A stretch of DNA of 42,136 bases from contig MNVF01000048.1 of NCBI GenBank assembly GCA_001871535.1, positions 1 to 42,136 of the forward strand, in the 5' to 3' direction. The first letter of the stretch is position 1, and every line of letters starts with the position of its first letter. Below are positions 2,265 through 23,600 of this stretch, in pieces. The notes under the pieces are model-generated. The model saw only the letters and a program-made list of their open reading frames with translations. It ran no database searches and was not told the DNA's origin. This DNA comes from Candidatus Micrarchaeota archaeon CG1_02_49_24 (lineage in GTDB: Archaea > Micrarchaeota > Micrarchaeia > Anstonellales > UBA8471). Both the position numbers and the translations under genes were made by a program.

Positions 2265-2879
2265 ATGAAAATGCTTTATCCGTCATTCGCCCCGCCTGCA
2301 AGGTGGAGAAGTGCGCTGCAGGGGAAGTTGCTTGAAAACCCAGCCTGGCGGCAATTGCGGCGGAAAATTTTGGATAGGGATGACTGCACCTGCAACTATT
2401 GCGGTTATCGTTCAGAGAAATTCCAGATAGTTGACCACATTGATGGGAACCCTGAAAACAATGCGGAGAACAACCTTCAAGTGGTATGCCAGATGTGCAA
2501 CCTGATAAAGCACGCAGGGCAGGGCTGCGTAATCGTCGGAATTGTTGACCTCTACAAAAAGTCGAAATTCACCCAGAACGAAATAATCCGCATAGCGCGG
2601 GACATGAGAGACTGTGGCGCAAGCGATGAGAGGATAATAATGCGCATTGGGCTTGAAGAAACGGCGCGGTTCAGGCAGGACCTGGACTACTTGAAAGGAT
2701 TGTATGGTTTTGTGACTTCAAGGCCAAGCCAGGATAGGAATGATATGTACAGCAAATGGGTGGAATACCATAAATTGCACAATAGCCGGACAAACATGGA
2801 CAGGCACCAGGCAAGACTGATGGAGCAGAATGAGCAAGAGGATTTTACGAAGAGCCCCTGCCTAATGAGGGGGTTCTAA
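2265..2879 (+). CDS. HNH endonuclease-domain protein
   Basis: CNYCGYRS..IVDHIDGNPENNAENNLQVVCQMCNLIKH gives CxxC...DH...N...N...CxxCN..KH. ATG 2265 immediately follows the stop of the NTase gene. Confidence 0.8.
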   Translation: MKMLYPSFAPPARWRSALQGKLLENPAWRQLRRKILDRDDCTCNYCGYRSEKFQIVDHIDGNPENNAENNLQVVCQMCNLIKHAGQGCVIVGIVDLYKKSKFTQNEIIRIARDMRDCGASDERIIMRIGLEETARFRQDLDYLKGLYGFVTSRPSQDRNDMYSKWVEYHKLHNSRTNMDRHQARLMEQNEQEDFTKSPCLMRGF

Positions 2880-2895
2880 GGGGTTCTTCCCTATT

Positions 2896-3705
2896 TCATA
2901 TCCCAAACTCCTTCACATTCACCCACTCAGCGCTGATTAATGCCCACCAGTCAAGCGCAAGCCCCTGGAGGACGTATTCATATGGCAGGTAGCCATAGCC
3001 CTTGTCCCCCCACTCATCGCCCCAGGAATTCCTTATTATGAACGCGCCGGTGGATTTCCCTATTCTCATGCCGTCATCATATCCAACTGCCAGAACCGCA
3101 TGGCCCCCAAGCACTGATTCGCCCTTTTCAGGGAACGGGATTTTGCCTTCCTTTGCTTCCCTGATTGAGTTATAGACAGTAAACCCGAACATTACCGGGA
3201 TTTCCCCTGCCAGCGTTTCCCGTATGTTTTGTAGGATTTTTTCCTCAGATTTTGCCTGCTCGTCCAATCGGAAGTATTTGAGCGCCTGGTAATTCTGGGC
3301 AAATGAGTAGCAAAAGGCCGGGGGCTCGCTGTCAATTTCTTTCTCAGAATATTCCCAATACTTCTCAGGCGGGGCGCCGAAGAGTACGAGCGCGCCCATG
3401 GTTGTGCGGATATAAGCGCCGGTATCGCCTGTCTGCTGCATCAAATTCCTGGTTGCCTTGTAGATGAACAATCTTGAGACGGTTTCGCTTACTCCCAGCG
3501 CCTTCTTCCTTGAGAATTCGCAGATGCCCGCCGCGGCGTTGGCAGTGCAGGAGCCGATGTTGCCCTGATTAAAGATTGGTGTGCAGTATTTGCGCAGGTC
3601 AACCCTTTCAGAGGGCGCTGTTTGCTTCAGAAGCGAGCTTATTTCGGTTGTGTCTTTTGTGTAATCCCTTGTATCAGGAATGTCTGGAATCCAGCCGAAT
3701 TTCAT
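2896..3705 (-). CDS. Papain-like (C1 family) cysteine peptidase
   Basis: NQGNIGSCTANAAAG (catalytic Cys), GGHAVLAVGYDD (His) and IRNSWGDEWGDKGYGYLPYEY (Asn-Ser-Trp). MKFGW at 3705 is the likely start. The track extension to 3798 translates an A/T-rich promoter. Confidence 0.85.
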   Translation of the reverse strand: MKFGWIPDIPDTRDYTKDTTEISSLLKQTAPSERVDLRKYCTPIFNQGNIGSCTANAAAGICEFSRKKALGVSETVSRLFIYKATRNLMQQTGDTGAYIRTTMGALVLFGAPPEKYWEYSEKEIDSEPPAFCYSFAQNYQALKYFRLDEQAKSEEKILQNIRETLAGEIPVMFGFTVYNSIREAKEGKIPFPEKGESVLGGHAVLAVGYDDGMRIGKSTGAFIIRNSWGDEWGDKGYGYLPYEYVLQGLALDWWALISAEWVNVKEFGI

Positions 3706-3867
3706 AGAAACCACCGCGATAAAGTATATACAAATGATTAGATAAAATGAAGGGTTGGAAACTGATACTTGCTCGAAAAGGATAAAATCATTAAACAAAA
3801 CTAGATTTAATCCAATTTAATTGAATGGATTCCACCAGTCTCTGACTTGACCCTTGTGTCAGGATTG

Positions 3868-3955
3868 GATTTTACGAAGATACTGCGTATCATTCGAAAC
3901 CCGGATTGAGCCAATTAGGCTCAATAGTGCCGCATGCAGCATTTGCTGCATACGG
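3868..3955 (+). repeat. Degenerate member of the structured repeat family (5' module only)
   Basis: gattttacgaaga..tcattcgaaa closing helix as in copy 2, followed by hairpins attgagcc-aatt-aggctcaat and gcatgcagc-attt-gctgcat. Confidence 0.4.
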
Positions 3956-3969
3956 TCCTGCGCCGTTGC

Positions 3970-3987
3970 GATGAACTGCGAGGAAAC
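3970..3987. repeat. 18-nt direct repeat gatgaactgcgaggaaac (left copy) flanking the AbiE cassette
   Basis: Identical 18-mer at 5852-5869. Both encode VSSQFI on the minus strand in frame with flanking gene halves. Confidence 0.8.
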
Positions 3988-4095
3988 CCTCACCCCCCTG
4001 CCGCGCAGGTATATTCCCACGCTGTTTTTGGATGAAGTGCCTTTCGGGGGAAAGCGCATCGCTATCCATAAAAGAGTCAGAAATTCTCGTGTCAT
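3988..4095 (-). pseudogene. N-terminal half of a DUF1931/histone-fold-like small gene (separated from its C-terminal half)
   Basis: ..SSKNSVGIYLRGRGVR then the VSSQFI core. After the core, the reading frame continues into unrelated or repeat sequence (track ORF 3859-4095). Confidence 0.35.
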
Positions 4096-4165
4096 TTTAC
4101 TTATATACCTGCCACGACATCATGCAGTGGAGGGCCTTGCGCCATTTCCCGTGCCATGGGGGCGT

Positions 4166-4966
4166 TCAGGCTTGCACATTCTCCAAAAACCGGTTGACCT
4201 GGTCCGCAACGATATTTCTTCCGTATCTGTTTTCAGTAAAAATTTCAACCTGGAACGGGCCCATCTGGTTCGCGTTCATGAACTTCTCCCTGACAACCGA
4301 AAGGGAATGCGCAAGCAGCTTTTCCATTCCCGGTGCAAGCTTCCTGCCGGAAACGGCCTTATTGAAATATTCCGCAGCCATCTCCGGGCTTCCGCCATAG
4401 TGCGTGAGCGCAAAAACATCATAGGAGTCCTTCGGCTTTGCCCTTCCGTCCAGTGCCTGCCCCTTGAGCGCGAGCGAGCCGACTAGGTCAGCCACCTTTA
4501 TGCTGGTTTTCACAGCCCCGTTGCCAGGCAGAACCGTTTCCACCTCCTGCCCGAAGTTGAACTCAAAAGCGAGATTCAGGCCTTCAAACGTGAAAGCCTG
4601 CAGGTCAGCCTGCACGTCCTTCAGGCCAATGTACTTTGCGCCTTCCTTGTCGCAGAGAAAGTCAAGGTGGATGCCATAGTCCTTGCCGTCAACCGGCGAT
4701 TTCACATCCCTTGAAAACCTGAATTCGTTCTCCTGTTCATAGCCAAGCCCGAGGACGCTCTTCTTTATCGTGTCGTATTTCTGCATCACTTTTGTGCGGA
4801 GCGCCAAATCTATGTCTATGCTCCCGCAATGGTCGAAATGCCCCCTTGTTATGAAATAAGGCGCCCGGCCTCCGGTAAGCACGATATCATTGTGGTATCG
4901 CTTCAATTCCAGGCCAAGCTCAAGCAGGGCTGATTTTGACGCGCTGGTTTCCTGAGTTCCATACAT
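4166..4966 (-). CDS. abiEii: AbiEii-type nucleotidyltransferase (type IV TA toxin family)
   Basis: IVLTGGRAPYFITRGHFDHCGSIDIDLAL NTase signature. 266 aa. Lies 4 nt downstream of the AbiEi-like gene. Confidence 0.7.
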   Translation of the reverse strand: MYGTQETSASKSALLELGLELKRYHNDIVLTGGRAPYFITRGHFDHCGSIDIDLALRTKVMQKYDTIKKSVLGLGYEQENEFRFSRDVKSPVDGKDYGIHLDFLCDKEGAKYIGLKDVQADLQAFTFEGLNLAFEFNFGQEVETVLPGNGAVKTSIKVADLVGSLALKGQALDGRAKPKDSYDVFALTHYGGSPEMAAEYFNKAVSGRKLAPGMEKLLAHSLSVVREKFMNANQMGPFQVEIFTENRYGRNIVADQVNRFLENVQA

Positions 4967-4970
4967 GGGC

Positions 4971-5633
4971 TCATTTCCCCTCTTTCCATCGTTTTTGGAT
5001 ATTTTTCAGTATCTCCCCGGCCGCCTCTTCGCCCCTCCCGGGATAATTCAGCAAATCCGCATAGAGCTGCACGTCTGAAACAACCCTCACGCCATCTATC
5101 GGGTTTGAACCGTAAAAAACACCGCTATTGCCGGCAATCGCGAACTTCACGTTCCCCCCGCTCTCAATCGGCCTTAGCCCGGCCATGCCTGCCCAGTATT
5201 CCGCGTCTTTTTCATTTCTCACGTATATGTGCGCACCCATCGGCCTTACGAACGGCGCGGAAAGGAGCGCGCCTGCCTGGCAGGTGAACGCATATTCCGG
5301 GCCCTGTTTTCCCTTGAAACGCGCGAACAGGAGGGAGACATCATTTTCCTCCATATAATACTCAAGGAAGCGCGTGTTTGCGGCAAAGTTGCGGTAGTTC
5401 GCCCAGCGGCGCAGCAGGTCTTCAGGGGCCATAATCTTAAGCCCGCCCCTGTCAGTGTCGCGCAGTGCCGCCCGTTCATTTATGAGCGCCCTGCTGACCG
5501 CGGATGCCCAGCGCAGCGAAACCCCGGCTTCCTTGCAAATCTCGCGGAGAGTCCAGGTTTTCGGATATTTCACAAGCAGGGCCCGGAGAATATCCTCTGC
5601 CTTGCCCCGGAAGATGTTCACTGTTGCCGCCAT
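4971..5633 (-). CDS. abiEi: AbiEi-type wHTH antitoxin/transcriptional regulator
   Basis: N-terminal wHTH (WTLREICKEAGVSLRWASAVSRALINE). C-terminal VSDVQLYADLLNYPGRGEEAAGEIL is typical of AbiEi C-domains. Confidence 0.65.
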   Translation of the reverse strand: MAATVNIFRGKAEDILRALLVKYPKTWTLREICKEAGVSLRWASAVSRALINERAALRDTDRGGLKIMAPEDLLRRWANYRNFAANTRFLEYYMEENDVSLLFARFKGKQGPEYAFTCQAGALLSAPFVRPMGAHIYVRNEKDAEYWAGMAGLRPIESGGNVKFAIAGNSGVFYGSNPIDGVRVVSDVQLYADLLNYPGRGEEAAGEILKNIQKRWKEGK

Positions 5634-6360: not shown

Positions 6361-6487
6361 GGATTCCACCTGTCGAGCCGATGCAACCACCAGTCAGAGA
6401 CAGGTGAAATCCATAGCGTCAACAAGCATGCGCCCCGAGCGAAGCGAGCAAGCCACTGGTCTATGACCAGTGGTGGGCGCATGCTTA
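6361..6487. other. Two large palindromes immediately 3' of hsdR (possible terminator or repeat)
   Basis: ggattccacctgtc (6361-6374) pairs with gacaggtgaaatcc (6399-6412). aagcatgcgccc (6424-6435) pairs with gggcgcatgctt (6475-6486) and encloses ccactggtc-tat-gaccagtgg (6453-6473). The outer 3' arm overlaps the hsdR stop. Confidence 0.45.
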
Positions 6488-9400
6488 TTGACTCCACTCT
6501 TTGGCAACTAATTCCGCCTGTTCTAGCACGGTTTGGGTAGCTTTTTCCTGTTTGTCAGGCGGATATCCGTATTTTCTCAATATTTTTCTGACGGCTATCC
6601 TTATCTCTGCCTTAACGCTTTCCCTGACTGACCAGTCAATTTTTACATTCCTTTTCAAGGTTTCAGTTAACTCACGTGCAATTTTCCTTAATGTTTCATC
6701 ACCAAGAACTTTGACTGCACTATCGTTTGTTTCCAGGGCATCGTAAAACGCCATTTCATCTTCCCTCAAATTCAGTAATTCCCCTCTTTTATCGTGCTTT
6801 TTCATCTCTTTTGCCAGCTCTATAAGCCGTTCAATTACTTCAACAGTCTGTATATTCCTGTTCTGATATTGACTGATCGTTTTTTCCAGCAACTCTGTAA
6901 AAGATTTAGCTGCAACCTTATTCTTCTGTTCACATACTTTGATTTGGTCATTAATCAGCTTTTTCAGCATCTCTAGTGCGAGGTTCTTCTGCTCCATCCC
7001 CTGCACTTCAGCAAGAAACTCATCTGACAATATGGAGATGCCAGGTTTTTTCAACCCTGCAATTTCGAATATGTCTATTACCTTGTCAGAGGCAATGGCC
7101 TTCGAGACCAGTTGCCTAAGCGGTATATCATAATCCTCTTCAGAATACCCTGGTTCGCTTCCCGTAAGTTTGCCCAAATATGCTTTCAACGTCTGGAAAA
7201 ATCCCAGTTCATCAGCAATTTTCATTGCTTCCTCATGGGGCACGGATAAGGCAAAGGCGCGCTTCAACGCAGCAACATTTTTGAAAAATCTTTTTTGCCC
7301 ATTTTCTTGCCTGAGAATATGATTCATTGCATCTCTTAGAATCGTCTCTTTTTTTGAAAGCGCTGCTGTGGCAAAATCGTTATAATCAAACCCATGAAAC
7401 ATGCTGGATACTATCTCATATTTTTCGCGCATGATTTTGATGGCATCCTCCTGTTGGAATACTGGAGTACCTCCCCCACCGCTTTTAGTATATGTAAGGG
7501 TTGCTTCCTTAAGTGGTTGGATTATTCCTATATAATCAACGACCAGCCCGCCTGGTTTACCCTTGAAAACCCGGTTCACCCTTGCGATCGCCTGCATCAA
7601 CCCATGCTCTTTCATAGGTTTGTCAATGTATATTGTGTGAAGGCACGGCACATCAAACCCGGTAAGCCACATATCCCTGACGATAACGAGTTTAAGTTCA
7701 TCACCTGGGTCTTTTATCCTGTTTTCTATCATTTTCCGTTGTAGTTTGGTTCTCATATGCTCTCTTGCAGCGCCGGTTATGACTACTTTGATAGCGCCCT
7801 TGTCGTGCTCTTTGCTATACCATTCTGGCCGTAGTTTGACTATCGCATCATGCAAATCTATGCAAATCCTCCTGCTCATGCATACTATCAAACCTTTTCC
7901 GTCTAATGCGGCTTGCCGTTGTTCAAAATGGCTGACAATATCCTCGGCTATGTGCCGGATTCTTTTTTTTGCCCCTACGACTTTTTCCATTCGTGCCCAT
8001 TTTGTTTTCAATTTCTCTTTTGTTTCGGTTTCCTCAGCTTCAGTTATCTCTTTAAAGTCAGACTCAATTTTCGGCATTCTTTCAGTTTTCAGCCCTATTT
8101 TCGCAAGCCTGTTCTCGTAATAAATCTGGACGGTCATGCCGTCGTTTACGGATTGTTTCATGTCATAAATATCCTTGCATCCTCCGAAAACTGCGGTGGT
8201 GCTCCGGTCATTCGTTTCAATGGGCGTAGCCGTGAACCCTATGAACGATGCGTTTGGCAGGGCGTCCCGCATGTGCCTGGCAAACCCGTCTATGAAATCG
8301 TATTGGCTCCTGTGCGCTTCATCTGCGATTACTACAATATCCCTTCTGCCTGAAAGGAGCGGGAATTTTTCTCCTGCCTCAGCTAAAAATTTCTGGGCGG
8401 TTGTAAAGACGATTCCGCCAGACGCAACCTTCAGGAACTCTTTTAGCGCTTGTTTTGTTGCTGCCTGTTTTGGCATATTCCGCAATAACTCGCTGCATTT
8501 GCAAAAGGTTTCAAACAGTTGGTCGTCAAGGTCGTTCCTGTCTGTGATTACAACTATCGTCGGGTTTCCCATTGCGTCTACTATCTTCCCGGTGTAGAAT
8601 GCCATTGTCAGGCTTTTCCCGGAGCCTTGCGTATGCCAGATTATGCCAGCCCGTTTATCCCCAGAAGGACTGGCAGCTTCAATGGTGGATTTTAGCGCAG
8701 CTAATACGGCATAATATTGGTGATAGGCTGCAAGTTTTTTTATTATCTTTTCAGAGCTTTTGGATTTTTCTTTTTCAAATGTTATAAAATGCCTGACCAA
8801 ATCAATAATTACCTCCTTCCTGAGCATATCCAGAATAAGAGTATCCCTGGAAAATTGGTCCAACTCCTCCAAAACCTTGCCGTCAATGGCTTTCCATTCC
8901 ATAAACCGCTCTATATCCGAGCTGATAGTGCCGGCCCAGGCCTTAACGCCGTCGCTTATGATTATTATCTCATTGTAATGAAAGAGCGTGGATATCTCCC
9001 TAAGGTATCGTTGCATCTGAGCATAAGCTGTTGCCTTGTCTGCCTTTTCTTCTGCAGGATTTTTGAGCTCAATAACGACTAATGGCAGGCCGTTTACGAA
9101 TAGCACGATGTCAGTCCGCTTGTTTATGCCGTTTTCCTTCACAGTGAACTGGTTCACTGCCAGGAATTCGTTATTTTTGAGATTGGAGAAATCAACAAGC
9201 TTAACTGTGTCATCTTTGATAGAGCCATCCGTTCTCCGATATTGAACATCCACGCCGTCAACAAGCATTTTATGGAACAGATGGTTGTTGTGGATTAGCT
9301 TCTGGCTCTCAGCGCGCAGGACTTTTTTAACTGCTTCCTCTTTTGCATCGCCCGGAATCGCAGGGTTGGACCTGTCAATTGCATCGTTCAGCCGCTCAAT

Positions 9401-9544
9401 CAGCACTACCTCAGAATAGCTCTTTCGTTCTGGAGTTTTTCCATCAGGCGCGATGTCCGGGCCGAACAATATACTGTAGCCGTTCTGGCGCAGCTTTTGC
9501 AGAACGTTTTCTTCAATTCCGGATTCGGTTATTATGGATGCCAT
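6485..9544 (-). CDS. hsdR: Type I restriction enzyme R subunit
   Basis: 1019 aa. Walker A TQGSGKS, DEAH box IADEAHRSQ, helicase C-terminal motifs, and the typical type I HsdR N- and C-terminal regions. Confidence 0.95.
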
Positions 9545-10467
9545 TTATTTTCACCTTTTGTTAGGGTTTTATAGTTCGTATGTTCCCGTGTTATTGATGT
9601 TGGATTATTAGAAATAAACGTGACATCATCATCAATTAGTTCTTTCATTTTTTTTATTAAATCAATTGATTTGCTTAAACCATTAAAAGTAGTCACAACT
9701 ATCGGAAGAATTGGGTTACGTTTTGTTGTTAAACTTAGCTTATTGGCATATGGTTGTGGTGAAAGGTAAATAAAATTGTCAACGTCATCGAGATCTTTAA
9801 TTTCAAATCCTTCGTCCATACTAACTTTCATTATCTTCGCGTCAGTGACCAAAAGTGGGAAGCACGCATGAATTGGAAACATATTGTCAATTCCTTTATA
9901 ATTATTTAGTTCTCTTCTATGCACGTATTCGCAGGCAAAAGCTATATCTACTGACTCATCATAAACGATGTTATTACCCTCGTCCATTACTTTTTTCATA
10001 TTTCCCTTTTTTGTATCCTTATTTGAATTCTCGTCGACAATAGCTATATTCTCGCTGACACTTATTTTTCCTGCTAACTCAAAAAAACGTTTTGCTGATA
10101 TAACTCCACCCAAATAATGCTGAAATGTAAATCCATCATTAAGAAAGTTTGGTAACCTTAATATAAAATTTTCATTGTTAAAGTTCTCTTTTTCAAAAAT
10201 GCATATGTTTTTTGTTGCCCATTTTTTCACTTCACCTATAACTCTAACCGTAAGAAGGACGTTCATGTCTATATCCCTAGAGTGTAAAACATTAACTCCA
10301 AAATGGGCTTCAATATCCAAGTCTTTGGAAATGTCGTTCCCCGTTCTATCCGTGTTGTATTTAGATTGATATACTGTTAAGCCAAAGTCATGTAACTGTT
10401 TTCTAACTTTAATCTCTAATGGGAACCCTGTTTCTTTAAGGATGTCTTTCAAATCATTTTTGTTCAT
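9532..10467 (-). CDS. Hypothetical protein with PD-(D/E)xK-like N-terminal motif, embedded between hsdS and hsdR
   Basis: ..KDLDIEAHF..(27 aa)..VIGEVKKW (D...E-x-K). Overlaps hsdS by 4 nt (ATGA) and hsdR by 13 nt. Visibly more A/T-rich than hsdR. Confidence 0.45.
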
Positions 10468-11765
10468 GTTTTATCAACTACATTCAGAGGAACTCTGATT
10501 TTACCAGACATAAGCCTAGGGAGCAATGAATCGCGAATATCTGATAATGTTCTACATTCTAACAAGTTTCCCCTGATTCTTTCTATAACCTCATTGACCT
10601 TTCTTTCAAAAACCATAACCAATTTTTTGTTTGGAACAAGAATATGCATATCTCTAATGGCGTCCGAATTTGTAGCGGTCGCTATTGAGGATGTACTACC
10701 TAGGGATTCGAAATTAAAATTTTTCAGATAGAAATAAAGATATTTTGAACTTATGAGTGAATCCTTAAGCTGGAATTGAGCTATTGCTTCGTTGGACGCC
10801 ATTGCCTTTGAAGCGATCCCTATTCTTCCAACTGTTAATTTAAAGCTCAACATAACTGTTCCTTCGGGAATTATGGGTATCCGAAACTTTTGGATTGCTC
10901 CTTGTTTTAGATATTCTGAGGTGTCGAATATGAACATTCCCGACTTTCCCATATCTTTAATTGACACCCAACAGACGTCAATAGCTTCTGTTGTGAACCA
11001 TTCTGCCTCCTTTCGGGGCGGCGTCCGTCCAATCATGACTTCAGCTACGTCGTCAATACGCTTTATCGCCCACCCCTCCGGTATCTCTCCCAATTCCGAC
11101 TCAATCATCCTCCCGCCGCTTGACTTGTACGGCTTCCCGTTCTCGTCGGGAAACTCGAAGTCAACGAACCAGTGCTTGAACAACGCTTCCGCCATCGATT
11201 CAAGCGTTGCGTTCATCTCGCGGTTGAGCTCGATTTTGGCGTCTAAGTTAGAAAGGATTTTGGAGATAGCGTGTTGTTCATGAAGGGGCGGACAAGGTAC
11301 TAATAGCTTTGAAATTGTATTGGCGTTGAATTGAGGCTGTGCTCCGCCGTTTACTAGATTATTTGCTTGATTCCAATATAGACTACTTCGTGAGAATTGA
11401 AAGAAGAAATTACTGCCGATAATATTCTCCTTAAATAATAGCCTGATTAGAAAGCCTCCATATGTTGCCTTGAATTCTTTATCAAATAGATAGGTTTTCC
11501 CAAAGGATGCGCCAGTTCTTGCAACTAGAACATCGTTTTTCTTTAGAATCCACTCTTTTTTGACTCGATCTTTTCCAATAAATGTCAAACCGGTTTTGTT
11601 AAGAAAACCGTCTGAAGTTATGTCTGTAATTCTGAGGTATACATACTCGCCTGTTTCTTTTGCTCGTTCCCCTAACCCGTACTGAAAGCCAGCTATCTCT
11701 CCTAGTTCTCTTACTGCCCAGTCTTCAGGGATTTTTCCGATTTCGGTTTCTTTGAATTTTGTCAT
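10464..11765 (-). CDS. hsdS: Type I R-M specificity subunit
   Basis: Two variable halves separated by the conserved LHEQHAISKILSNLDAKIELNREMNATLESMAEALFKHWFVDFEFP, plus C-terminal LSDIRDSLLPRLMSGKIRV. ATG 11765 forms an ATGA overlap with the upstream stop. The track start at 11783 is less likely. Confidence 0.9.
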   Translation of the reverse strand: MTKFKETEIGKIPEDWAVRELGEIAGFQYGLGERAKETGEYVYLRITDITSDGFLNKTGLTFIGKDRVKKEWILKKNDVLVARTGASFGKTYLFDKEFKATYGGFLIRLLFKENIIGSNFFFQFSRSSLYWNQANNLVNGGAQPQFNANTISKLLVPCPPLHEQHAISKILSNLDAKIELNREMNATLESMAEALFKHWFVDFEFPDENGKPYKSSGGRMIESELGEIPEGWAIKRIDDVAEVMIGRTPPRKEAEWFTTEAIDVCWVSIKDMGKSGMFIFDTSEYLKQGAIQKFRIPIIPEGTVMLSFKLTVGRIGIASKAMASNEAIAQFQLKDSLISSKYLYFYLKNFNFESLGSTSSIATATNSDAIRDMHILVPNKKLVMVFERKVNEVIERIRGNLLECRTLSDIRDSLLPRLMSGKIRVPLNVVDKT

Positions 11766-12184
11766 TTGCCATTCCACATCCATCTAGGTCTGTTTGGTGC
11801 AAAGTTCCAGACATTTTTGAATAAATAAACGTTATCAAAAAAAGTATCATCTCCTATTAGTATTGCACCTTCAATATATGCTAATTTTTCAGTCGTTCCC
11901 ATGATAAAATAATCTTTTTCAGAAATTTTTTTATCAAAATCTGCAGACAGTATCTGTTCTATCTCTTTTTTCCTGGCAATTAAAAGTTCGCAGCTTTGGC
12001 AAAATCGGCAGGTTTTGTTCAAATTAAGAATCATTTTTCTTTTTTTTATTGCAATCGTTAGAGGAAGTTTTTTTATCTTCGTTGCATGATCGCATTTGGG
12101 GCATTTGGAAAAAGCACAATCAGGATAGGGATTCAGAAAAAAATAATATCTTTCTTTCATCTTTCTGGATTTACCCATAGTCAA
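11762..12184 (-). CDS. Zn-ribbon hypothetical protein embedded in the R-M operon
   Basis: CPKC...(33 aa)...CRFCQSC cysteine pairs. 140 aa. A/T-rich. No family recognised. Confidence 0.5.
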   Translation of the reverse strand: MTMGKSRKMKERYYFFLNPYPDCAFSKCPKCDHATKIKKLPLTIAIKKRKMILNLNKTCRFCQSCELLIARKKEIEQILSADFDKKISEKDYFIMGTTEKLAYIEGAILIGDDTFFDNVYLFKNVWNFAPNRPRWMWNGK

Positions 12185-12269
12185 CCAATCCTCATCAAAT
12201 TCTTCTTAGTCTCCTCTTCCAACCTATCCGATTCCTTAAACTGTTCAGAAAGCTCAGCAGTTAGTTTTT

Positions 12270-13529
12270 TCATTTCCATTTCCTCTTGATAACCTGCCAG
12301 TGCCCAGCACTGGTCGTGCCTTTTCTTTTTAGCAGTTTTTTATCCTTCAATTTCTTTATGTACTCTTTTATAGTATCAAGTCTAATCCCTAAATTGGCAG
12401 CTAATGCCGTTCTGGATAGTTTGGGATTGCCTGCCAATATATTCAGTATTTTCAGCTCTAGTTCGGTAATGTTAACTGGGGGGGTAGTTCTCTCCACTGT
12501 TTTAGCATCCTTCCCAACCCGCTTGAACACAGTTACAAACTGCCTTCCGACTTCCTCAAACAGGGTATCCGGTGCTTTTGACAATATCAGTCGTATCCCG
12601 CGGCCCCATTTCTCTATGAAATGTACCCGGTGGAGCATCTCAGCTATGAGTTCATTGCGCCGTTCTGACACACCCCCGCGACGTATCCGCGCAATCGTCA
12701 GCCCGCCGTAAAGCAAACCAGGGCTGCGGAGTTCCACCCTGTCAGTGAATACGGCTATGCTCACAGAATCATAGAGATGGTAATCGCGATGGCAGAAAGC
12801 GTTTATGATTGCTTCGCGTGTAGCCTCTTTGGGTATTTCCGGCACGTCAACCCTGTAAAGCCCTTCAAGGCGCATTCCAAGGTATGTATTCCGCGCTATA
12901 TATCCTTCTGCTTGCCCAATGAGATAAAACAGGTCGCCTTCGTATTCCTTCCTGTCAATGATGACTGCCGAATCAGTGCCGGCAAACACTGCACACCGCA
13001 ATTTTGCGTTGGGAAAGAATTTTTGCGGCTTGCGGGCGAACAGGAGCACTGCGGCATTAAGGATGCGCCCATTGGCTAGCAGGCTCAGTTTACTTAGCGA
13101 GTTTTTAACAGATACGTATCCAAGACCGGCAAGCTTCAAGAATTTTCTTAGCTTATTAGAGCTTATGTCAGTTAATTTTGCGCTTTGGCAGTTTTGCTTG
13201 TCCCAGCGCAGGGCATCCTTGTTTTTTGCAAGGATTATGCGCTCAAGCTCGCCGCCGCTTACCTGCTGGTCCTCATCACCAACTCGCATGTATGCCCTTC
13301 CATATGCTCTATATGGTGCATTTTGGCCGGAAAACTTAATGCAGATACACTGCCTGCCATCAAACTCAACCACTTCTATAACCGGATATACACGCGGCTC
13401 TATATGCGAGGAAATTGCCTGACTGATTGTTCTAATAGTAGTGTCAGCAACTTGCTGGCCCAGGATTATGCCATCATTCCCTATCCCGAAATACAGTTCG
13501 CCCTTTCCGTGCTTGTTAAGAATTGCCAC
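12270..13529 (-). CDS. Schlafen/AlbA_2 + HATPase_c_4-like + wHTH protein (COG2865 type), 5' end frameshifted
   Basis: Paralog of 15434-16810 (NKHGKGELYFGIGNDG; REAIINAFCHRDY; GLLYGGLT; C-terminal wHTH). The true N-terminus [12 protein letters not shown] starts at ATG 13600 in another frame, disrupted at an A6 run (13565-13570). Confidence 0.75.
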   Translation of the reverse strand: MAILNKHGKGELYFGIGNDGIILGQQVADTTIRTISQAISSHIEPRVYPVIEVVEFDGRQCICIKFSGQNAPYRAYGRAYMRVGDEDQQVSGGELERIILAKNKDALRWDKQNCQSAKLTDISSNKLRKFLKLAGLGYVSVKNSLSKLSLLANGRILNAAVLLFARKPQKFFPNAKLRCAVFAGTDSAVIIDRKEYEGDLFYLIGQAEGYIARNTYLGMRLEGLYRVDVPEIPKEATREAIINAFCHRDYHLYDSVSIAVFTDRVELRSPGLLYGGLTIARIRRGGVSERRNELIAEMLHRVHFIEKWGRGIRLILSKAPDTLFEEVGRQFVTVFKRVGKDAKTVERTTPPVNITELELKILNILAGNPKLSRTALAANLGIRLDTIKEYIKKLKDKKLLKRKGTTSAGHWQVIKRKWK

Positions 13530-13592
13530 AATGGAGATTAACGCATCCTTCAGTTCGGATGTTGTTTTTTCAACTCAAGCGTTTCTGATTCC

Positions 13593-15128
13593 TTAAACAT
13601 CATACCCTAGCCCCTTGAAGTTCTTCTTTATCTCTTCTTCCAACTCTTTTGATTTTTTGAATTGTTCTGAGAGTTCGGATGTAAGTCTCTTCATTTTATC
13701 TTGGAATTTTTCGTCATCCTCTTCTACCTCTTCAGTTCCAACATACCTGCCAGGAGTAAGTATATGCTCGTGCTTCCTAATCTCATCAAGCTTTACCGAT
13801 TTGCAGAAACCCGGCATATCCTCATATTTTCCGCCTTCGCCTCTCCAGGCATGGTAAGTGTCAGATATTCTCTTGATTTCTTCATCCGTCAGCTCCCTGT
13901 GTCTCCTGTCAATCATTGCGCCCATCTTGCGCGCATCAATAAACAAGACTTCGCCGCGCCTGTCGCGGAATTTGTGATTCTTCTTATCGCGCGCAACGAA
14001 CCACAGGCAGGCTGGAATCATTGTGTTGTAGAAAAGCTGGGACGGCAGGGCAATCATACAATCAACTATGTCCGCCTCAACTATTTTCCTGCGAATTTCT
14101 CCCTCACCGGACGTATTGGACGACATGGAACCATTCGCTAGGACAAAACCCGCAATTCCCGCAGGCGAGAGATGATGGATAAAGTGCTGCACCCAGGCAA
14201 AGTTTGCGTTTCCCGCAGGCGGAATGCCATATTTCCAGCGCACGTCGTCTTTGAGTTGTTCCCCTCCCCAGTCGCTCATGTTGAATGGCGGGTTGGCAAG
14301 TATGAACTCAGCTTTCAGGTCTTTATGGAGGTCGTTATGGAAACTGTCGCCCAATTGTATATTAGCGTCAATCCCCCGTATTGCAAGGTTCATGGTACAT
14401 AATCTCCAGGTGGTAGCGTTTGATTCCTGCCCATAAACTGAAATGTCCCCTAGTTTCCCCTGGCGCTCCTTAACAAATTTCTCGCTCTGGACAAACATTC
14501 CCCCTGAGCCGCAGCACGGGTCGTATATACGTCCTTTGTAGGGCTCTATCATTTCAACAAGGACGCGAACTATGCAGCGGGGAGTATAGAATTGCCCCCC
14601 TTTCTTGCCTTCAGCATCTGCAAACTGCCCTAAAAAGTATTCATAAACGCGTCCCAGGATATCCTTGCCTTTGCTTTCTGAATCACCCAATCCAATAGTC
14701 CCTATCAAATCGATTAATTCACCTAATCGTTGCTTATCAAGTGCAGGGCGTGCGTAATTTTTTGGAAGAACACCTTTAAGTTTAGGATTTTCATTTTCTA
14801 TTGCATCCATTGCATCATCTATAATCTTCCCAATTTCAGGCCGTTTTGCATTGCTCTGCAAATGGTCCCACCGTGCTTCCTTAGGCACCCAGAAAACGTT
14901 CTTCCTTTTGTATTCGTCCCTTTCTTCAGGCCCGAGGCTGTCGGTATCTTTTTTCAGTTCATCATAGCGTTCTTTGAATGAATCCGATATGTGTTTGAGA
15001 AAAATCAGGCCAAGCGCAACATGTTTGTATTCAGCAGCGTCCATATTACTTCGCATTTTGTCTGCTGCCTGCCAGAGCTTCTGCTCGAATCCAAGGTTTG
15101 CGCCGTTATTTTTTTCTTTAACCATCAA
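13593..15128 (-). CDS. hsdM: Type I R-M N6-adenine DNA methyltransferase subunit
   Basis: N-terminal [34 protein letters not shown], motif [11 protein letters not shown], and motif IV NPPF ([11 protein letters not shown]). Confidence 0.95.
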
Positions 15129-15216
15129 TCCACCCTCTACAGCACCGCCATCTTCCCGGCAATCGGCTTGCCATTCCTCATGGAAATCTTCCCACAGCCT
15201 TTTGGAGTTGTTTCCA

Positions 15217-15441
15217 TTAATATTTTCTCTCCCATTTGGAAGGCTCGATAATCTTCTCCCCTTCCTTCTGCAGCATGTCCATTAGCTTCTTCCTCGTCTC
15301 GGAAATCATGCCTACGGCGTCATCTGGAGTTTTCGCATTCTGGACAGTAATCCTGTAGGACATGCCGGAAGCAAACCGGCTGATGCCAACACTCACCGTT
15401 TTCTCCCCGCTCACGGTTTTCTCATCAGTTTCATCATCCAT
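15217..15441 (-). CDS. Small hypothetical protein (74 aa) upstream of hsdM
   Basis: ATG 15441 overlaps the upstream stop by 8 nt (ATGGATGA). [34 protein letters not shown]... No family recognised. Confidence 0.4.
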
Positions 15442-16810
15442 TTGAATCACCCTTTTTGCTAGGGTTCCATTTCCCACAGCTCTTTTTTATCTCCCAATGC
15501 CCGCCCTTGTCAGGGCCCACGCGCTTCAGCACGCCGTCTTTGGTGAGCTTGCGCAACCGGGAGCGGATGGTGCTGATGGGCTTGCGGAGTTTCTGCGCAA
15601 TCGCCTTCTTTGAGATGGTCGGGTCGGAGAGGATAATTTCGATGAGTTTCTGGTACTTTTCAGGCACTTTGCAGGCATTCTCCGAACCTTTTTCGACGAT
15701 ATTTTCAGGCACTGGGCTCTTTCTCTTGAACACGGTGATGAAATGGCGCCCGACTTCCTTGAACGAAGCCGTTGGCTCTTTCTGCAATATCAGGCGGATG
15801 CCGCGGCCCCAGGCTTCGGCGTAATGGATGCGCTGCAACATGCTGACGATAAGTTCATTTCGCCTCTCAGAGACGCCTTCCTTTATAATGCGCTCAATCG
15901 TCAGCCCACCATAAAGCAAGCCGGGGCTGCTGATTTCCACCCGGTCGTTGAAGATGGCCACGTGCACCGAATCTGGATTATGATAATCCCGGTGGCAGAA
16001 GGCATTGATGATTGCCTCACGCAGCGCCGAACGGTCGATTTCAGGAACATCAACCCGTGCCAGTCCTTCCAACCGCTCGCCCACGTGGATGTTCTTGAGG
16101 ACATACGCTTGGGCATCTTCGATAAGGGTGAACAGGTCGCCCTCGAAGTCCTTCTTGTCAAGGATTGTGGCCGAGCCGGTGAATACGGCGCAGCGAAGCT
16201 TGGCGTTGTGGAAGAATTTCTGCGGCGAGCGCCCGAACAAGAGTATGGCGGCGTTCGTGAGCGCCCCGCTCGGTGATAGTATAAGGCCCATGTTGTGCAA
16301 TGCGAGATCTCTTGATTCGAGTTCAAGATTGGCCTTTTCTAGGAAAACGCCTAATTTTCCGGAGTCAATGTCATTGGACATGGCGCCTGGGCAGGGTTTG
16401 TCGTCCCAGTGCAAGGCGTCCTTGCTCTCCCGTATAATTAGCTCTCGCAGTTCCTTGCCGCTCAAGACGGGATTCTTGTCGCCCACGCGGGTGTAGGCGC
16501 GCCCATAGGCAAAATAAGGCATCTGGTTCCCGCTGACTTTGACGCGGATGCAGGGCTTCCCATCGATTCGCTCTTCCTGGATGTTAGGGAATATCTCCGG
16601 CTCGATATGGTCTTGGATGGATTTGGAGATGTCTGGCACTGTCATCTTTCCGATATCCTGCCCGGCCGCCTTTCCGTCGTCCTCTATGCCGAAGATGACT
16701 TCGCCCTGTCCGTGCTTGTTGAGCATGGCGCAGATAGAAATAATGGCCTCCTTGAGTTCGGAGGTTGATTTCTTGAGTTCAAGTGACTCTGATTCTTTGA
16801 GTTGCATCAT
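15434..16810 (-). CDS. Schlafen/AlbA_2 + HATPase_c_4-like + wHTH protein (COG2865 type)
   Basis: ESESLELKKS..NKHGQGEVIFGIEDDG (AlbA_2-type N-terminus), REAIINAFCHRDY..GLLYGGLT core, and C-terminal wHTH ISKKAIAQKLRKPISTIRSRLRKLTKDGVLKRVG. ATG 16810 overlaps the Csa3-like stop (TGATG). Confidence 0.8.
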   Translation of the reverse strand: MMQLKESESLELKKSTSELKEAIISICAMLNKHGQGEVIFGIEDDGKAAGQDIGKMTVPDISKSIQDHIEPEIFPNIQEERIDGKPCIRVKVSGNQMPYFAYGRAYTRVGDKNPVLSGKELRELIIRESKDALHWDDKPCPGAMSNDIDSGKLGVFLEKANLELESRDLALHNMGLILSPSGALTNAAILLFGRSPQKFFHNAKLRCAVFTGSATILDKKDFEGDLFTLIEDAQAYVLKNIHVGERLEGLARVDVPEIDRSALREAIINAFCHRDYHNPDSVHVAIFNDRVEISSPGLLYGGLTIERIIKEGVSERRNELIVSMLQRIHYAEAWGRGIRLILQKEPTASFKEVGRHFITVFKRKSPVPENIVEKGSENACKVPEKYQKLIEIILSDPTISKKAIAQKLRKPISTIRSRLRKLTKDGVLKRVGPDKGGHWEIKKSCGKWNPSKKGDSNG

Positions 16811-17403
16811 CACAGCACCGCCATCTTCCCGGTCAGCGTAATCTCAAACTTCTCATCCACATATCCGGCATCCTTCAATTCCTTCAAATGCTGATAGAGC
16901 ATGCCCGGAGTTTTGCCCAATTTGTCCGCAATCTCCGCAATCGGTTTCCCATTTCTCTTCTCAATCTCAAGCAGGAGCTCGCGTTTCGGCTCGGAAAGCC
17001 CGAAAGTCAGTTTCGGCAGCTCCACCAATTTGTTCAGGTCCGGCAATTCATTGCACACAATTTTTTCAACAAGCTCGGGCCGCGCATAGCACCCATACAA
17101 AACTCCCTGGGCCATGAGCTTCCACCCGCCTGAAACGTTCACAATCGCCCGGTTGTTTTTCTCCAGGAGCTCAACAGTCTTCTTGGCAACCGCAAAGATG
17201 TCCGCGCAGTCAACCACAATCTCCCTGATGTCAGCCACCGTGCCGTAAAGCTCCTTCACCTTCACCAGCCCCTCCTGCACCTTCTTTTCACCAGTGGAGC
17301 TGTTTGCTATCACCAGCACTATCTTGCCCGGCGAAAACGCATGCGCCGCTGCCACGAACGGCTCGAAAGAATAGAAAGTGGCTATCAGTGTAGTGTCGGC
17401 CAT
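16810..17403 (-). CDS. csa3: Csa3-like regulator (CARF-type Rossmann domain + C-terminal wHTH)
   Basis: TLIATFYSFEPFV..KIVLVIA..(~70 aa)..VNVSGGWKLMAQGVL follows the Csa3/CARF layout (beta1-[GF]-x-E, late GG-x-[KR]-x-[LM] motif). C-terminal LSEPKRELLLEIEKRNGKPIAEIADKLGKTPGMLYQHLKELKDAGYV is a wHTH. Confidence 0.6.
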   Translation of the reverse strand: MADTTLIATFYSFEPFVAAAHAFSPGKIVLVIANSSTGEKKVQEGLVKVKELYGTVADIREIVVDCADIFAVAKKTVELLEKNNRAIVNVSGGWKLMAQGVLYGCYARPELVEKIVCNELPDLNKLVELPKLTFGLSEPKRELLLEIEKRNGKPIAEIADKLGKTPGMLYQHLKELKDAGYVDEKFEITLTGKMAVL

Positions 17404-18756
17404 CTAATCATCACGTAAATGATAATAAAGTTCTTCCAGCTGTTTAACTGTATTAACTAACTGTTTTTTACAAAATTCAGGATTTTTCCAATCAATTTTC
17501 TTATTTGTGTATCTCTTGTTCCATTCAAATCCGATCTGTATTTGATTTACTTCCGCCCCATATTGTTTTGCGGTATCAATAAAATCCTGTATCGTCTTAA
17601 ACTCTAATTTAATTTTTTTATCGCTTTTTTTAAATTGAAGGGCAGGTTTCCAGTTATCTTCTGGAGTTTTATGACGATCTAGACGAAATTCCAGATTACA
17701 ACGGGTTGCAAATGGACCTAACTGCCCACCTTTTAGGGACTTGTAATCCTGTATCGCCATGTAGACGGTTCGCCCATAGTTCTTCTGCCCCGTAGTTTTT
17801 TTGTTCCATGATGCAATCTTAGTTATTCTTGGCCAAATTTCTTTCGATCTTAATTTTTTATTCGGGTCATGCAAAGTTAAAACAACTTTGAATTCATCTA
17901 AATTTACATTTGTAGTAAAATGAAGGTTCTTACTCTTCTCTTTACCCAGTTTACCAAAGTAAGATTTTACCCACGAATCATTTTTCTTCTCTCTTTCTTT
18001 TCCTTTTTCACCTGACGTCTGCATCTCCAGTTTTTCGCCTTTTTGACTTTTTATAGCTGCAAAGTTTATCAGACATCGAACGTCGTGATTAAAGCTAGAT
18101 TGGTCATTGCCATAAAATCCATAGAAGTCATCTGTCAATCTCATCACCCTCAGACAATCTAGGTATTGTTCTATCAGAAATTTTTCGATTTTTACTTGAG
18201 ATTTTTTTTCAGCATCAGAAAGCACGCCATAGAGTTCATCCCAGTCTATTGTGTGCCATATCTCACGCTTGCGTTTCATCAGCCTGAAACCGCCCTCCTC
18301 TATCTTCTTAGCATATTTTTTTAGCTGAACTGGGTCTTTTTTGCTATCTGTCTTTGCTTCCAAGAATAGTATTACGTCGTTATATTCTATCATAGCATCT
18401 ATAATTATCTTGTCTCCTCCGCGTCCAGGTTTTTTTTCATTTGGCGTAGTACTCTTTGATAGAAACAGCAAGTATGCGTCCTTTTTTGGAAGTGTTTTTA
18501 GTTCTTTGTCGCTGATTTGGGAGGATACTCGTATTATTTCACTTAAATCTTTCTTACTTATTTTAATCTTAGTTGAGATGAATTTTGTAAACGCATCCCT
18601 AGTTCTTAGACACTCAGGTGAGCGAATAAAAAAAAGAAGGTCTTTCGTGACGTTATTCTCTACGTTCTTCAATTCTCCGTCCTCTTTTTGACGTTGGTGC
18701 CAAAAGAGGTTCTCCCATTTTTCGTCTCCCACGCTTATCCCTTGTTCTGGCAACAT
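17404..18756 (-). CDS. Large hypothetical protein with RecB/Cas4-like PD-(D/E)xK signature; first gene of the operon
   Basis: IIDAMIEYNDVILFLEAKTDSKKDPVQLKKY gives D...E-A-K...Q-x-x-x-Y. The ~300-aa C-terminal region is unassigned. ATG 18756 is preferred over the TTG at 18774 used by the track. A/T-rich. Confidence 0.5.
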   Translation of the reverse strand: MLPEQGISVGDEKWENLFWHQRQKEDGELKNVENNVTKDLLFFIRSPECLRTRDAFTKFISTKIKISKKDLSEIIRVSSQISDKELKTLPKKDAYLLFLSKSTTPNEKKPGRGGDKIIIDAMIEYNDVILFLEAKTDSKKDPVQLKKYAKKIEEGGFRLMKRKREIWHTIDWDELYGVLSDAEKKSQVKIEKFLIEQYLDCLRVMRLTDDFYGFYGNDQSSFNHDVRCLINFAAIKSQKGEKLEMQTSGEKGKEREKKNDSWVKSYFGKLGKEKSKNLHFTTNVNLDEFKVVLTLHDPNKKLRSKEIWPRITKIASWNKKTTGQKNYGRTVYMAIQDYKSLKGGQLGPFATRCNLEFRLDRHKTPEDNWKPALQFKKSDKKIKLEFKTIQDFIDTAKQYGAEVNQIQIGFEWNKRYTNKKIDWKNPEFCKKQLVNTVKQLEELYYHLRDD

Positions 18757-18838
18757 ATAAATGTGTTGTGTCAAGATAGTTATTTGATAGTTAAGGAATA
18801 AACTATACTGTTAAGGATGTAGGTGTTATGGTGGTTGC

Positions 18839-19363
18839 ATGTGCGAGCCGATAGGCGAAATTGCAGAGGTGTTTGAGAAATTGTGCGCGAAGTATAAGGC
18901 GGGTGTTGGCTTTGATGAGGAGACGGCAAACCGGATTGCCAGCGAAGTTGACCCGAGATTTGTGCTAAAGGTGGTTCAAATCGAAAAGGGACAGATAGGC
19001 GATGAGAAGTGCAAATCAGAGCTCCTTGAGAGGGCACGGAAGCTGCGGGAAGAAATAAAGGATAAGCAGTATGTTGGCACCTACCTGTTCCTGCCGCTTT
19101 CACGGGAGGAAGTTGTTAAATCACATAGGGAAAAGGGCGCCATAAGCAATTTTATCAACCATGTTTTATCATCAGTCGGCTTGTGCGCGGGAAGGGGCAG
19201 ATGCATTGGGAATTTTTATGGTTCTGACAAGGGCAAAAGAATATACGTGATGTTTGCCTACTGTGATGAGGCGCTTTACAGGCAAATCGTGAGCCATCGA
19301 AGGGAAGAAACTTGCTTGTTTGTGAAAACTGCGGGAAGCGCAAAGACAGGTGATGGGAAATGA
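18839..19363 (+). CDS. Hypothetical protein (174 aa), first gene of a three-gene operon
   Basis: ORF with 4-nt overlap to the next gene. No recognisable motif. Confidence 0.5.
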   Translation: MCEPIGEIAEVFEKLCAKYKAGVGFDEETANRIASEVDPRFVLKVVQIEKGQIGDEKCKSELLERARKLREEIKDKQYVGTYLFLPLSREEVVKSHREKGAISNFINHVLSSVGLCAGRGRCIGNFYGSDKGKRIYVMFAYCDEALYRQIVSHRREETCLFVKTAGSAKTGDGK

Positions 19364-23328: not shown

Positions 23329-23600
23329 AAAAACATAAAGAGCACTGCGATTATCACGGCCAGTGCAAAAACAAGGCATATCGGGAAGTTTATCCGGTGC
23401 GAAATGGCAAATTCTACAGCGGATGGAACTATTTATGCAGGAAACATTTCGGGCAGGAGGTTAAGAAAGGGAAGAAATTTTTCTGGGCGCGCATGACAAA
23501 AGATGGTGAAGCGGCGCCGCTCATCCCTGTGAACAATACAGCAGTTAACTATAGCAAGGAGAAGTCTGTCAGCTTGGAAAGCGTGATGAAAAAGAAATAG
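23325..23600 (+). CDS. Small Cys/His-rich hypothetical protein
   Basis: HCDYHGQC...(24 aa)...CRKH suggests a possible Zn-binding site. ATGA overlap with the PIN gene. Confidence 0.45.
   Translation: MKKHKEHCDYHGQCKNKAYREVYPVRNGKFYSGWNYLCRKHFGQEVKKGKKFFWARMTKDGEAAPLIPVNNTAVNYSKEKSVSLESVMKKK

Follow-up and report, generated by a model that had tools for sequence, protein, structure and literature searches.

A Predicted Type I Restriction-Modification Operon with Embedded Genes behind a Csa3-like Regulator in a Micrarchaeota Archaeon

Results

An Expanded Type I Operon

The stretch of DNA analysed (the window) is a 42,136-nt contig from Candidatus Micrarchaeota archaeon CG1_02_49_24, a groundwater archaeon of the Micrarchaeota (DPANN). 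Ten open reading frames (ORFs) lie closely spaced and in the same orientation on its minus strand, from position 18756 to position 6485, in the 5'-to-3' order p1, Csa3-like gene, COG2865a, p4, hsdM, COG2865b, p7, hsdS, p9 and hsdR. This string is read here, with moderate confidence, as a functional Type I restriction-modification (R-M) operon that lies in a regulator-led defence hotspot and carries co-expressed embedded genes. The ORF coordinates bear out the statement of an original prediction, made from the sequence, that ten co-oriented, tightly packed minus-strand genes are present and that other genes part hsdM, hsdS and hsdR; the extra ORFs beside these three number six or seven. All operon coordinates given below refer to the minus strand, and fetched loci are identified by L numbers.

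Type I R-M enzymes act as HsdM2S complexes, which methylate self DNA, and as HsdR2M2S complexes, which translocate and cleave DNA that lacks methylation. The hsdM gene (13593-15128) is intact and encodes a Type I methyltransferase that matches N6_Mtase (PF02384, 2.6e-112) and HsdM_N (PF12161, 7.7e-29) and whose translation shows NPPF and DPCCGSGG motifs. The specificity subunit encoded by hsdS (10464-11765) has two target-recognition domains, with Methylase_S (PF01420, 4.7e-35) matched in two stretches and the PADLOC model Specificity_I at 2.9e-99. The nuclease-translocase encoded by hsdR (6485-9544) is likewise intact, at 1019 aa, scores 592 bits against TIGR00348 (cut-off, 284.55 bits) and contains HSDR_N, SWI2_SNF2 and T1RH-like_C domains. 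All three proteins have the domain content of Type I subunits, and the operon is predicted to contain an intact, working M-S-R system, a claim held with the same moderate confidence as the reading of which it is part.

The junctions within the string were examined individually. The p1 and Csa3-like genes meet as TAG|ATG at 17404/17403, and the Csa3-like gene and COG2865a meet as TGATG at 16810; COG2865a and p4 share 8 nt (15434-15441), p7/hsdS and hsdS/p9 each share ATGA (11762-11765 and 10464-10467), and p9 and hsdR share 13 nt (9532-9544). The junction list of the original prediction was correct in all its coordinates, but the overlap at 13593-13600 belongs to a 16-codon fragment and not to the main COG2865b frame. 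Similarly, the only two gaps, 15129-15216 and 12185-12269, were placed correctly but are not plain spacers, because each contains the 3'-end relic of an upstream gene. Overlapping or abutting junctions make up 6 of 9 within the operon compared with 7 of 25 same-strand junctions in the rest of the window (longest-ORF starts), and the packing of the operon is only mildly unusual for this genome. Given that overlapping junctions are frequent elsewhere in this compact genome, tight packing does little to show that the genes act as a unit.

Three metagenome assemblies that were deposited separately (L001-L003) carry the locus at 99.7-100% identity, and the complete ten-gene set was seen in this population only. 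L002 is 99.7% identical to the window over 11 kb, with two indels; its positions 1708-4785 are a population variant of window positions 6485-9544 and encode an HsdR of 1025 aa rather than 1019 aa.

A Conserved Csa3-like Gene Precedes Variable Cargo

The second gene of the string (16810-17403) encodes a 197-aa regulator with an N-terminal CARF Rossmann-like domain and a C-terminal winged helix-turn-helix (wHTH), the Csa3/CARF3 architecture. It scores 76.9 bits against TIGR01884 (curated cut-off, 60.2 bits) and matches PADLOC CARF3 over its full length (7e-47); the Pfam Csa3_N and CARF_Card1 matches fall below their cut-offs. The CARF loop signature ..NVSGGWK.. is kept in both Micrarchaeia sequences aligned. 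Pfam, PADLOC and NCBIfam profiles thus agree with the identities first proposed for this protein and for HsdM, HsdS and HsdR. The two-domain architecture, like the score above the TIGR01884 cut-off, is shared with the Csa3 regulators of type I-A CRISPR-Cas. Unlike those regulators, the gene here leads R-M or nuclease cargo: a k-mer test revealed no CRISPR-like array in the 42-kb window, which also contains no cas genes, and R-M or nuclease genes make up the annotated neighbourhood in related loci.

The 24 metagenomic relatives of this gene show 56-83% identity (70-83% for most). Upstream of the gene, synteny is kept across 25 loci with a divergent HAD hydrolase gene and with metallo-beta-lactamase-fold and FtsZ-like genes, and conservation of the Csa3-like gene equals or exceeds that of these core neighbours. 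The region preceding p1 in the window (18757-18845) aligns with the sequence upstream of the Csa3-like genes in 18 other loci. It contains the motif TCCTTAACTATCAAATA at 18797-18781, and the TATA-like part of this motif lies ∼28 nt 5' of ATG 18756, a spacing that suggests a leaderless or short-leader mRNA. Judged from these alignments, the Csa3-like gene is a conserved core gene of Micrarchaeia with a conserved, putative promoter.

In nearly all loci, the Csa3 stop codon is followed by a GGTG-type Shine-Dalgarno (SD) sequence and by the ATG of the cargo within 8-13 nt, and the cargo almost always has the same orientation as Csa3. What is carried there differs between loci. Type I R-M genes follow in the window, L020 and L093; Mrr, a Type IIG enzyme and an AlbA_2 protein in L084 and L091; a pair of m5C methylases in L092; a Sacsin-like protein with an SNF2 helicase in L106; COG2865 in L087, L093, L097 and L104; and RmuC in L020, L101 and L102. 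Other cargo includes PDDEXK_4, GIY-YIG/RAMA and T5orf172-helicase proteins. The variable stretch terminates at the same conserved gene pair in L020, L092 and L102. Since the Csa3 side is fixed and the downstream genes differ, the ten-gene string sits in a regulator-bordered hotspot.

Two of these loci are Micrarchaeia-type and carry expanded Type I operons of their own. In L020 (7486-17576), the order is Csa3, RmuC, a HARE-HTH protein, hsdM, a 249-aa ORF, hsdS, a p9-like gene and hsdR; L093 (181-8424) has a distant COG2865 gene where L020 has RmuC.

Scars of Stepwise Assembly

Three sets of relics record how genes were added. The first lies at the start of p1 (17404-18756, 450 aa). In 18 other loci, Csa3-like genes (which begin MFPE..xxVGDT..) have a promoter and 5' end that can be aligned with the 90 nt preceding p1 and with the first 11 p1 codons (MLPEQGISVGD); distant p1 relatives have no such extension. 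These 11 codons are a captured Csa3 5' end, and p1 begins at ATG 18756, not at TTG 18774 where p1 and the operon had first been taken to start. A native p1 start at MLPEQ..VGD was considered and rejected: the distant members P0004-P0008 begin at KW.N.FW, and the upstream DNA aligns with Csa3 promoters.

The same point has been used elsewhere. In L088 (699-1806), a different 166-aa ORF with no Pfam match is fused to the same leader (MFADQLPNVGD|EAKG..), Csa3 restarts just after it, and a short GGAGAT-like duplication is present at the fusion. Insertion after Csa3 codon 11 thus occurred more than once. The Csa3 genes of the window and of L086 lack the 11-codon leader and start at MADT. In L086 (1379-2526), Csa3 is immediately preceded, rather than followed, by the 3' part of a COG2865 gene that shares 59% identity with COG2865a. 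The conserved leader of L089 has an in-frame stop at ∼213-300 (MFAEEALSV*ES..), and it is therefore dispensable or decaying in that locus.

The second scar is an exact 21-nt direct repeat (100% identity in a repeat search) that brackets COG2865a and p4. Its left copy (16812-16832) is the 3' end of the Csa3 gene; its right copy (15139-15159) is followed by TAG, by AGGGTGGATTG, which includes an SD-like AGGGTGG, and by the hsdM ATG, that is, by the stop/GGTG-type spacer/ATG layout of Csa3-cargo junctions elsewhere. By our own estimate, the chance expectation of such a repeat is ∼2e-5 in 13 kb. The right copy and its junction-like layout imply that Csa3 and hsdM were formerly adjacent in one parental locus.

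The third scar is a relic of an hsdM C-terminal tail (12185-12290, ..MKKLTAELSEQFKESDRLEEETKKNLMRIG*) that ends 2 nt before the p7 ATG. Its BLOSUM62 local score is 87-103 against the best dozen real hsdM tails and 37-44 against the most divergent tails, compared with 22 ± 4.7 (maximum, 41) for shuffled controls. This relic implies that p7 was at one time coupled to an hsdM the body of which later gave way to the present hsdM and COG2865b block. The GC content of the genes falls into three classes: p1, p7 and p9 at 0.32-0.36; the hsd genes and COG2865b at 0.41-0.47; and Csa3 and COG2865a at 0.53.

One-sided homologous recombination combined with an illegitimate second join would yield relics of this kind. 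An integron-like cassette platform was considered and rejected as the working model, being kept only within the improbable proposal that closes the Discussion, since no recombinase was seen among annotated neighbours, the second copy of the Csa3 tail was found only in the window, and a hairpin at the hsdR end (see below) does not recur.

One Intact and One Frameshifted COG2865 Gene

COG2865a (15434-16813) is intact and encodes a 459-aa protein in which Schlafen/AlbA_2, GHKL-type HATPase_c_4 and wHTH domains (Pfam, 1e-17, 3e-19 and 4e-9) form a complete architecture. ExxxxE and DDG motifs are visible by eye, and the sole PDB match is the uncharacterised entry 3LMM. The gene is 63-73% identical to the COG2865 genes located directly after Csa3 in L097 and L104.

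The second copy, 51% identical to the first by blastp, is split. A 16-codon 5' fragment (13550-13600) runs from ATG 13600, within an overlap with hsdM, to the TGA at 13550-13552 and encodes the N-terminal ExxxxE of the AlbA_2 domain, both glutamates of which are out of the main frame. The main ORF (12270-13529) encodes 419 aa from GTG 13529, in a frame open only from 13574. A -1 shift at the A6 run at 13565-13570 is needed to join the two parts; seven A's there would fuse them into a product colinear with COG2865a. The identical A6 run occurs in the separately deposited assembly L001. Because of the frameshift, the Pfam AlbA_2 match is restricted to profile positions 26-117, leaving an N-terminally truncated version of the architecture. 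Given the frame shift and its presence in L001 also, COG2865b is either broken or starts at GTG 13529 without the first 25 AlbA_2 residues, and it is probably inactive. Programmed -1 frameshifting and phase variation were considered; G plus six A's is a weak slippery site, and both assemblies have the same run length. An inactivating mutation is more likely. Profiles for AlbA_2, HATPase_c_4 and wHTH thus confirm both proteins as COG2865 members, as had been proposed, but the second gene does not encode a continuous product.

An hsdS-linked Family Typified by p9

The gene between hsdS and hsdR, p9 (9532-10467), encodes 311 aa and is the founding member of an unannotated hsdS-linked family. As a single-sequence query it retrieved only itself; a profile that included the L020 homologue revealed 11 members at ∼35% identity. 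E79-x-K81, C89, C179, H183, H200 and C202 are invariant, and E18 and D51 are kept in at least 90% of members. Six independent contexts were counted: hsdS immediately precedes the family member in the window, L020, L093, L110/111 and L112, and hsdS-DUF3644 does so in L108. All of these operons belong to the same hsdM clade (hsdM identity, 73-80%), and the p9 genes are AT-rich in every background (GC, 0.30-0.37).

An AlphaFold2 model of p9 is confident (pLDDT 80, pTM 0.83). Foldseek searches of PDB and BFVD with this model gave no match below E = 0.02, the sub-threshold matches being NotI, SduA, MspJI and viral PD-(D/E)XK proteins. The protein had no match in Pfam, PADLOC, NCBIfam or PHROGs, neither the single sequence nor the family profile matched PDB sequences, and an IMG/VR scan returned no relatives and gave no support for a viral origin. 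The conserved residues and gene context make p9 a candidate hsdS-linked metal-dependent nuclease or R-M accessory factor and, we infer, the strongest candidate for a true R-M partner among the embedded genes.

One family member (32% identity) lies outside an R-M operon, in L113 (658-5392), directly after NurA, a 310-aa ORF and HerA (DUF87), with Rad50 nearby; this context hints at a role for the family at DNA ends. In L108 (10937-11278) and L112 (5925-6266), the p9-like gene is directly followed by a 113-aa ORF with an acidic tail. The two copies are 89% identical and have no Pfam match, and the ORF is absent from the window.

Extra Genes Are the Rule in the hsdM Clade

A scan of species-representative genomes with HsdM yielded 80 related loci (L004-L083; 67-78% identity), all with hsdM, hsdS and hsdR in that order. 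Among the 56 that contain both hsdM and hsdR, nine are compact and ∼45 have co-oriented extra ORFs between these genes. The hsdM-to-hsdR distance ranges from 1.25 to 7.3 kb, with 4.05 kb in the window. Pfam analysis of 123 inserted ORFs returned the usual defence and toxin repertoire, namely Abi_C, COG2865, RhuM, DUF1016/YhcG, DUF1828/1829, PIN_12, nucleotidyltransferase pairs, AAA_21/AAA_15, AbiJ, Fic and Mrr_cat. Interruption of the hsd series by other ORFs is thus the usual state in this clade. Eight of the clade's loci have COG2865 at some point between hsdM and hsdS, and in four of these (L012, L017, L023 and L033) it immediately follows hsdM.

By the reasoning of "guilt by embedding", genes that recur, co-oriented, between hsd genes become candidate defence genes. 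COG2865 and p9 show this pattern; p4 and p7, which have no relatives in the fetched loci, do not. The part of the original prediction that treated COG2865 genes as passengers of R-M and defence loci agrees with their position beside hsdM in related loci. The Csa3-like gene is not specific to Type I systems, since it also heads Type IIG, m5C-methylase, nuclease and other cargo in related genomes. More generally, the linkages of COG2865 with hsdM, of p9 with hsdS and of Csa3 with its cargo recur between genomes, whereas p1, p4 and p7 were not found linked to hsdRMS elsewhere.

Embedded genes have precedents. PrrC is the embedded gene of the E. coli prr locus. Payne et al. (2024) reported 17,432 such non-redundant genes across BREX, DISARM and Type I R-M systems, of which over half had no clear function (10.1101/2024.01.29.577857), and TgvAB is embedded in a Type I system of Vibrio cholerae (VPI-2), in a report that also cites the rlo genes of Campylobacter (jejuni) (PMC11411939). 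Like all of these, the inserts described here are co-oriented and of defence type, vary in content between loci and are in many cases of no known function. The operon differs from them in that its six or seven extras are at the high end, its host is a DPANN archaeon and scars that order the insertions are visible; moreover, p1, p4, p7 and p9 have no match to the PADLOC HEC or PDC models, save a weak match of p1 to PDC-S26 (E = 0.0023).

Schlafen-ATPase-DNA-binding proteins tightly associated with R-M form cluster 7 of Weickert, Liu and Strecker (2026), and tRNA cleavage has been demonstrated, among such Schlafen proteins, for the CARF-like Cash relatives alone (PMC13462974). The COG2865 proteins resemble cluster 7 in combining AlbA_2/Schlafen, GHKL-type ATPase and wHTH domains beside R-M genes; by contrast with cluster 7, two diverged copies occur in one operon, and one is frameshifted.

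ORFs with Few or No Relatives

Profile searches assigned the Csa3-like protein and the COG2865 pair, as described above, and left p1, p4, p7 and p9 without a match. Beyond its captured leader, p1 belongs to a rare family with only 7 relatives among 1.84e9 representative proteins. Its body contains a D...ExK...QxxxY motif; E139, K141, Q150 and Y154 are invariant in the 7-member alignment, with IIDG/IIDA upstream. The E-x-K and QxxxY residues correspond to the RecB-type motif set, which by itself is no proof of membership. The protein had no match in Pfam, NCBIfam or PHROGs, neither p1 nor its family profile matched PDB sequences, PDC-S26 was the only PADLOC match, and the best Foldseek match of an AlphaFold model (pLDDT 68.6) against PDB had E = 0.07 and involved unrelated folds. 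The labels "RecB-like" for p1 and "PD-(D/E)xK-like" for p9, as first given, are backed by conserved motifs but by no profile or fold.

The 74-aa ORF p4 (15217-15441) and the 138-140-aa protein p7 (11762-12178) have no detectable relatives; no match to either was found in Pfam, PADLOC, NCBIfam, PHROGs or the fetched loci, and none to p7 in an IMG/VR scan. The description of p7 as a Zn-ribbon protein is borne out by the four-Cys pattern (CPKC...CRFCQSC) visible in its 140-aa ORF.

Discussion

The arrangement described above can be accounted for by a Type I operon that would occupy a variable slot just downstream of a conserved Csa3-like gene. At least three separate recombination or insertion events would then have added the accessory genes: p1 would have entered at codon 11 of the Csa3 gene, a COG2865a and p4 block would have been placed between Csa3 and hsdM, and a COG2865b block would have been joined at the hsdM 3' end, p7 and p9 having already been coupled to hsdM and hsdS before. 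Transcription of the string would start at the conserved Csa3 promoter and might give a leaderless mRNA beginning at ATG 18756; the Csa3-like protein, as a transcription factor responsive to a ligand, would determine how far the cargo behind it is expressed. The embedded genes would be co-expressed extra defence genes and not subunits of a ten-part machine. By analogy, COG2865a may be a back-up RNase/ATPase effector of the PrrC type.

The Csa3-like protein would be an archaeal CARF analogue of the WYL-type and RptR-type defence regulators (PMC4012209, PMC12255303). CARF and WYL domains have been predicted to be defence regulators (PMC4012209), and RptR-type regulators stand at the head of varied defence systems (PMC12255303). 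The likeness extends to layout, in that a regulator with a ligand domain and a wHTH comes first and different defence systems stand behind it in each genome. BrxR/CapW-type (WYL-wHTH) regulators similarly head varied defence systems. Unlike the BrxR/CapW-type proteins, the sensor here is CARF and not WYL, the gene is a syntenic core gene of one archaeal lineage instead of travelling with the system, and cargo attaches at two set positions in Csa3, namely codon 11 and the stop codon.

Several considerations weigh against this interpretation. Close gene spacing is common across the whole genome, and the promoter function of 18757-18845, like the single transcript, is deduced from conservation and spacing only. 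The Csa3-like gene could be a mere conserved neighbour of a recombination hotspot. No source of cyclic oligoadenylate was seen in the window, which lacks cas genes and CRISPR-like repeats. The nuclease labels of p1 and p9 are hypotheses drawn from conserved motifs, the role of COG2865 in an R-M context is that of a candidate only, by analogy, and p4 is perhaps not a real gene.

The main rival explanation takes the region for a passive hotspot. Unrelated selfish or stand-alone defence and toxin-antitoxin genes would accumulate because the conserved flanks (Csa3, hsdM and hsdR) promote recombination, the Csa3-like protein would be a housekeeping-type regulator with no role for the cargo, and p9 would hitch-hike with hsdS. 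This is possible, if doubtful. Cargo is highly variable both in the hsdM clade and in the Csa3 loci, the scars are of the kind expected from homology-facilitated illegitimate recombination, and the Csa3-like gene is syntenic with HAD, metallo-beta-lactamase-fold and FtsZ-like neighbours in the manner of a core gene. Passive accumulation sits poorly, however, with cargo that is nearly always co-oriented and located 8-13 nt after the Csa3 stop behind a shared SD, with the capture of two different genes in frame at Csa3 codon 11 and with cargo that is consistently of R-M or nuclease type and not random. For p9 the evidence is divided: its genes are AT-rich everywhere, as is hsdS, but p9 stays directly after hsdS in six contexts although identity is only ∼35%, a pattern that favours selection for the linkage.

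The original prediction had suggested a single composite system in which two Schlafen-type sensors, two extra nucleases and a CARF regulator would be tied mechanistically to R-M. The co-orientation of ten genes with mostly overlapping or abutting junctions, the single conserved promoter upstream and the recurrence of p9, COG2865 and Csa3 beside R-M genes are what such a unit would show. Nevertheless, a dedicated ten-gene system is very unlikely. The full set is confined to this population, and the closest analogues, L020 and L093, share only Csa3, hsdMSR and p9 with it, their remaining slots being taken by RmuC, HARE-HTH or other genes; p1, p4 and p7 have no hsd linkage elsewhere, and COG2865b is frameshifted. 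The three recombination scars, together with the mosaic of three GC classes, indicate stepwise assembly and not one dedicated ten-part system, and embedding as such had already been published (10.1101/2024.01.29.577857; PMC11411939). Least credible is a decaying locus whose extra ORFs are remnants and whose R-M system no longer functions. The COG2865b frameshift, the relic gene tails in both gaps and the orphan ORFs p4 and p7 could be taken as signs of decay, yet HsdM, HsdS, HsdR, Csa3, COG2865a and p9 are full length with complete domain matches, and the three separate metagenome assemblies agree over the locus at 99.7-100% identity.

The interpretation that remains preferred is therefore a working Type I operon with co-expressed embedded genes in a regulator-led hotspot. 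Extra genes within Type I R-M operons are already known; new are the Csa3-led hotspot, the precise capture points and the p9 family. This family, with 11 members and neither annotation nor a structural relative, provides a concrete candidate for an R-M accessory factor. The scars form an unusually clear record of operon building, in which incoming genes were joined at the ends of conserved resident genes and downstream expression would have been kept. A CARF-wHTH core gene in front of interchangeable R-M and nuclease cargo would broaden the idea of a regulator-led defence island to include archaea and CARF sensors. CRISPR-Cas is under-represented in DPANN archaea (PMC12988326), and a Csa3-like core gene in such a CRISPR-poor lineage raises the question of its ligand where no type III CRISPR system is evident.

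A bolder proposal, which we regard as speculative and rather improbable, is that defence cargo in Micrarchaeia is exchanged on a constant expression platform made up of the Csa3-like gene and its promoter. Genes would be captured either in frame after codon 11 or a few nucleotides after the stop codon behind a shared ribosome-binding site, CARF would gate the cargo, and p9 would be an unrecognised Type I R-M partner. If true, a lineage mostly without CRISPR-Cas would possess a cassette-like defence locus under ligand control.

Other Features of the Window

A compound hairpin (6405-6500) lies over the hsdR stop codon. It comprises an 18-bp outer stem and a 9-bp inner stem (-52.3 kcal/mol, z = -6.6) and may be a transcript 3'-end structure; none of the other fetched loci contained it. 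The 850-nt stretch between hsdR and AbiEi gave only self matches in blastx and blastn searches. Scans of the window with Rfam and for tRNAs and tandem repeats returned just one short repeat and a tRNA-Arg (GCG) gene on the minus strand (36098-36172), the sole RNA gene found.

The operon is part of a wider defence island that includes AbiEi/Eii, HNH, PIN, Mrr_cat, DUF4268/Shedu-like and Fic genes. The left flank (644-5633) contains a MarR gene with a DUF6036 nucleotidyltransferase gene, HNH, a papain-like protease and AbiEi/AbiEii (4166-5633). The right flank (22903-29172) comprises PIN (22903-23328), RNA-ligase-like, Mrr_cat, DUF4268/Shedu-like and Fic (28255-29172) genes.

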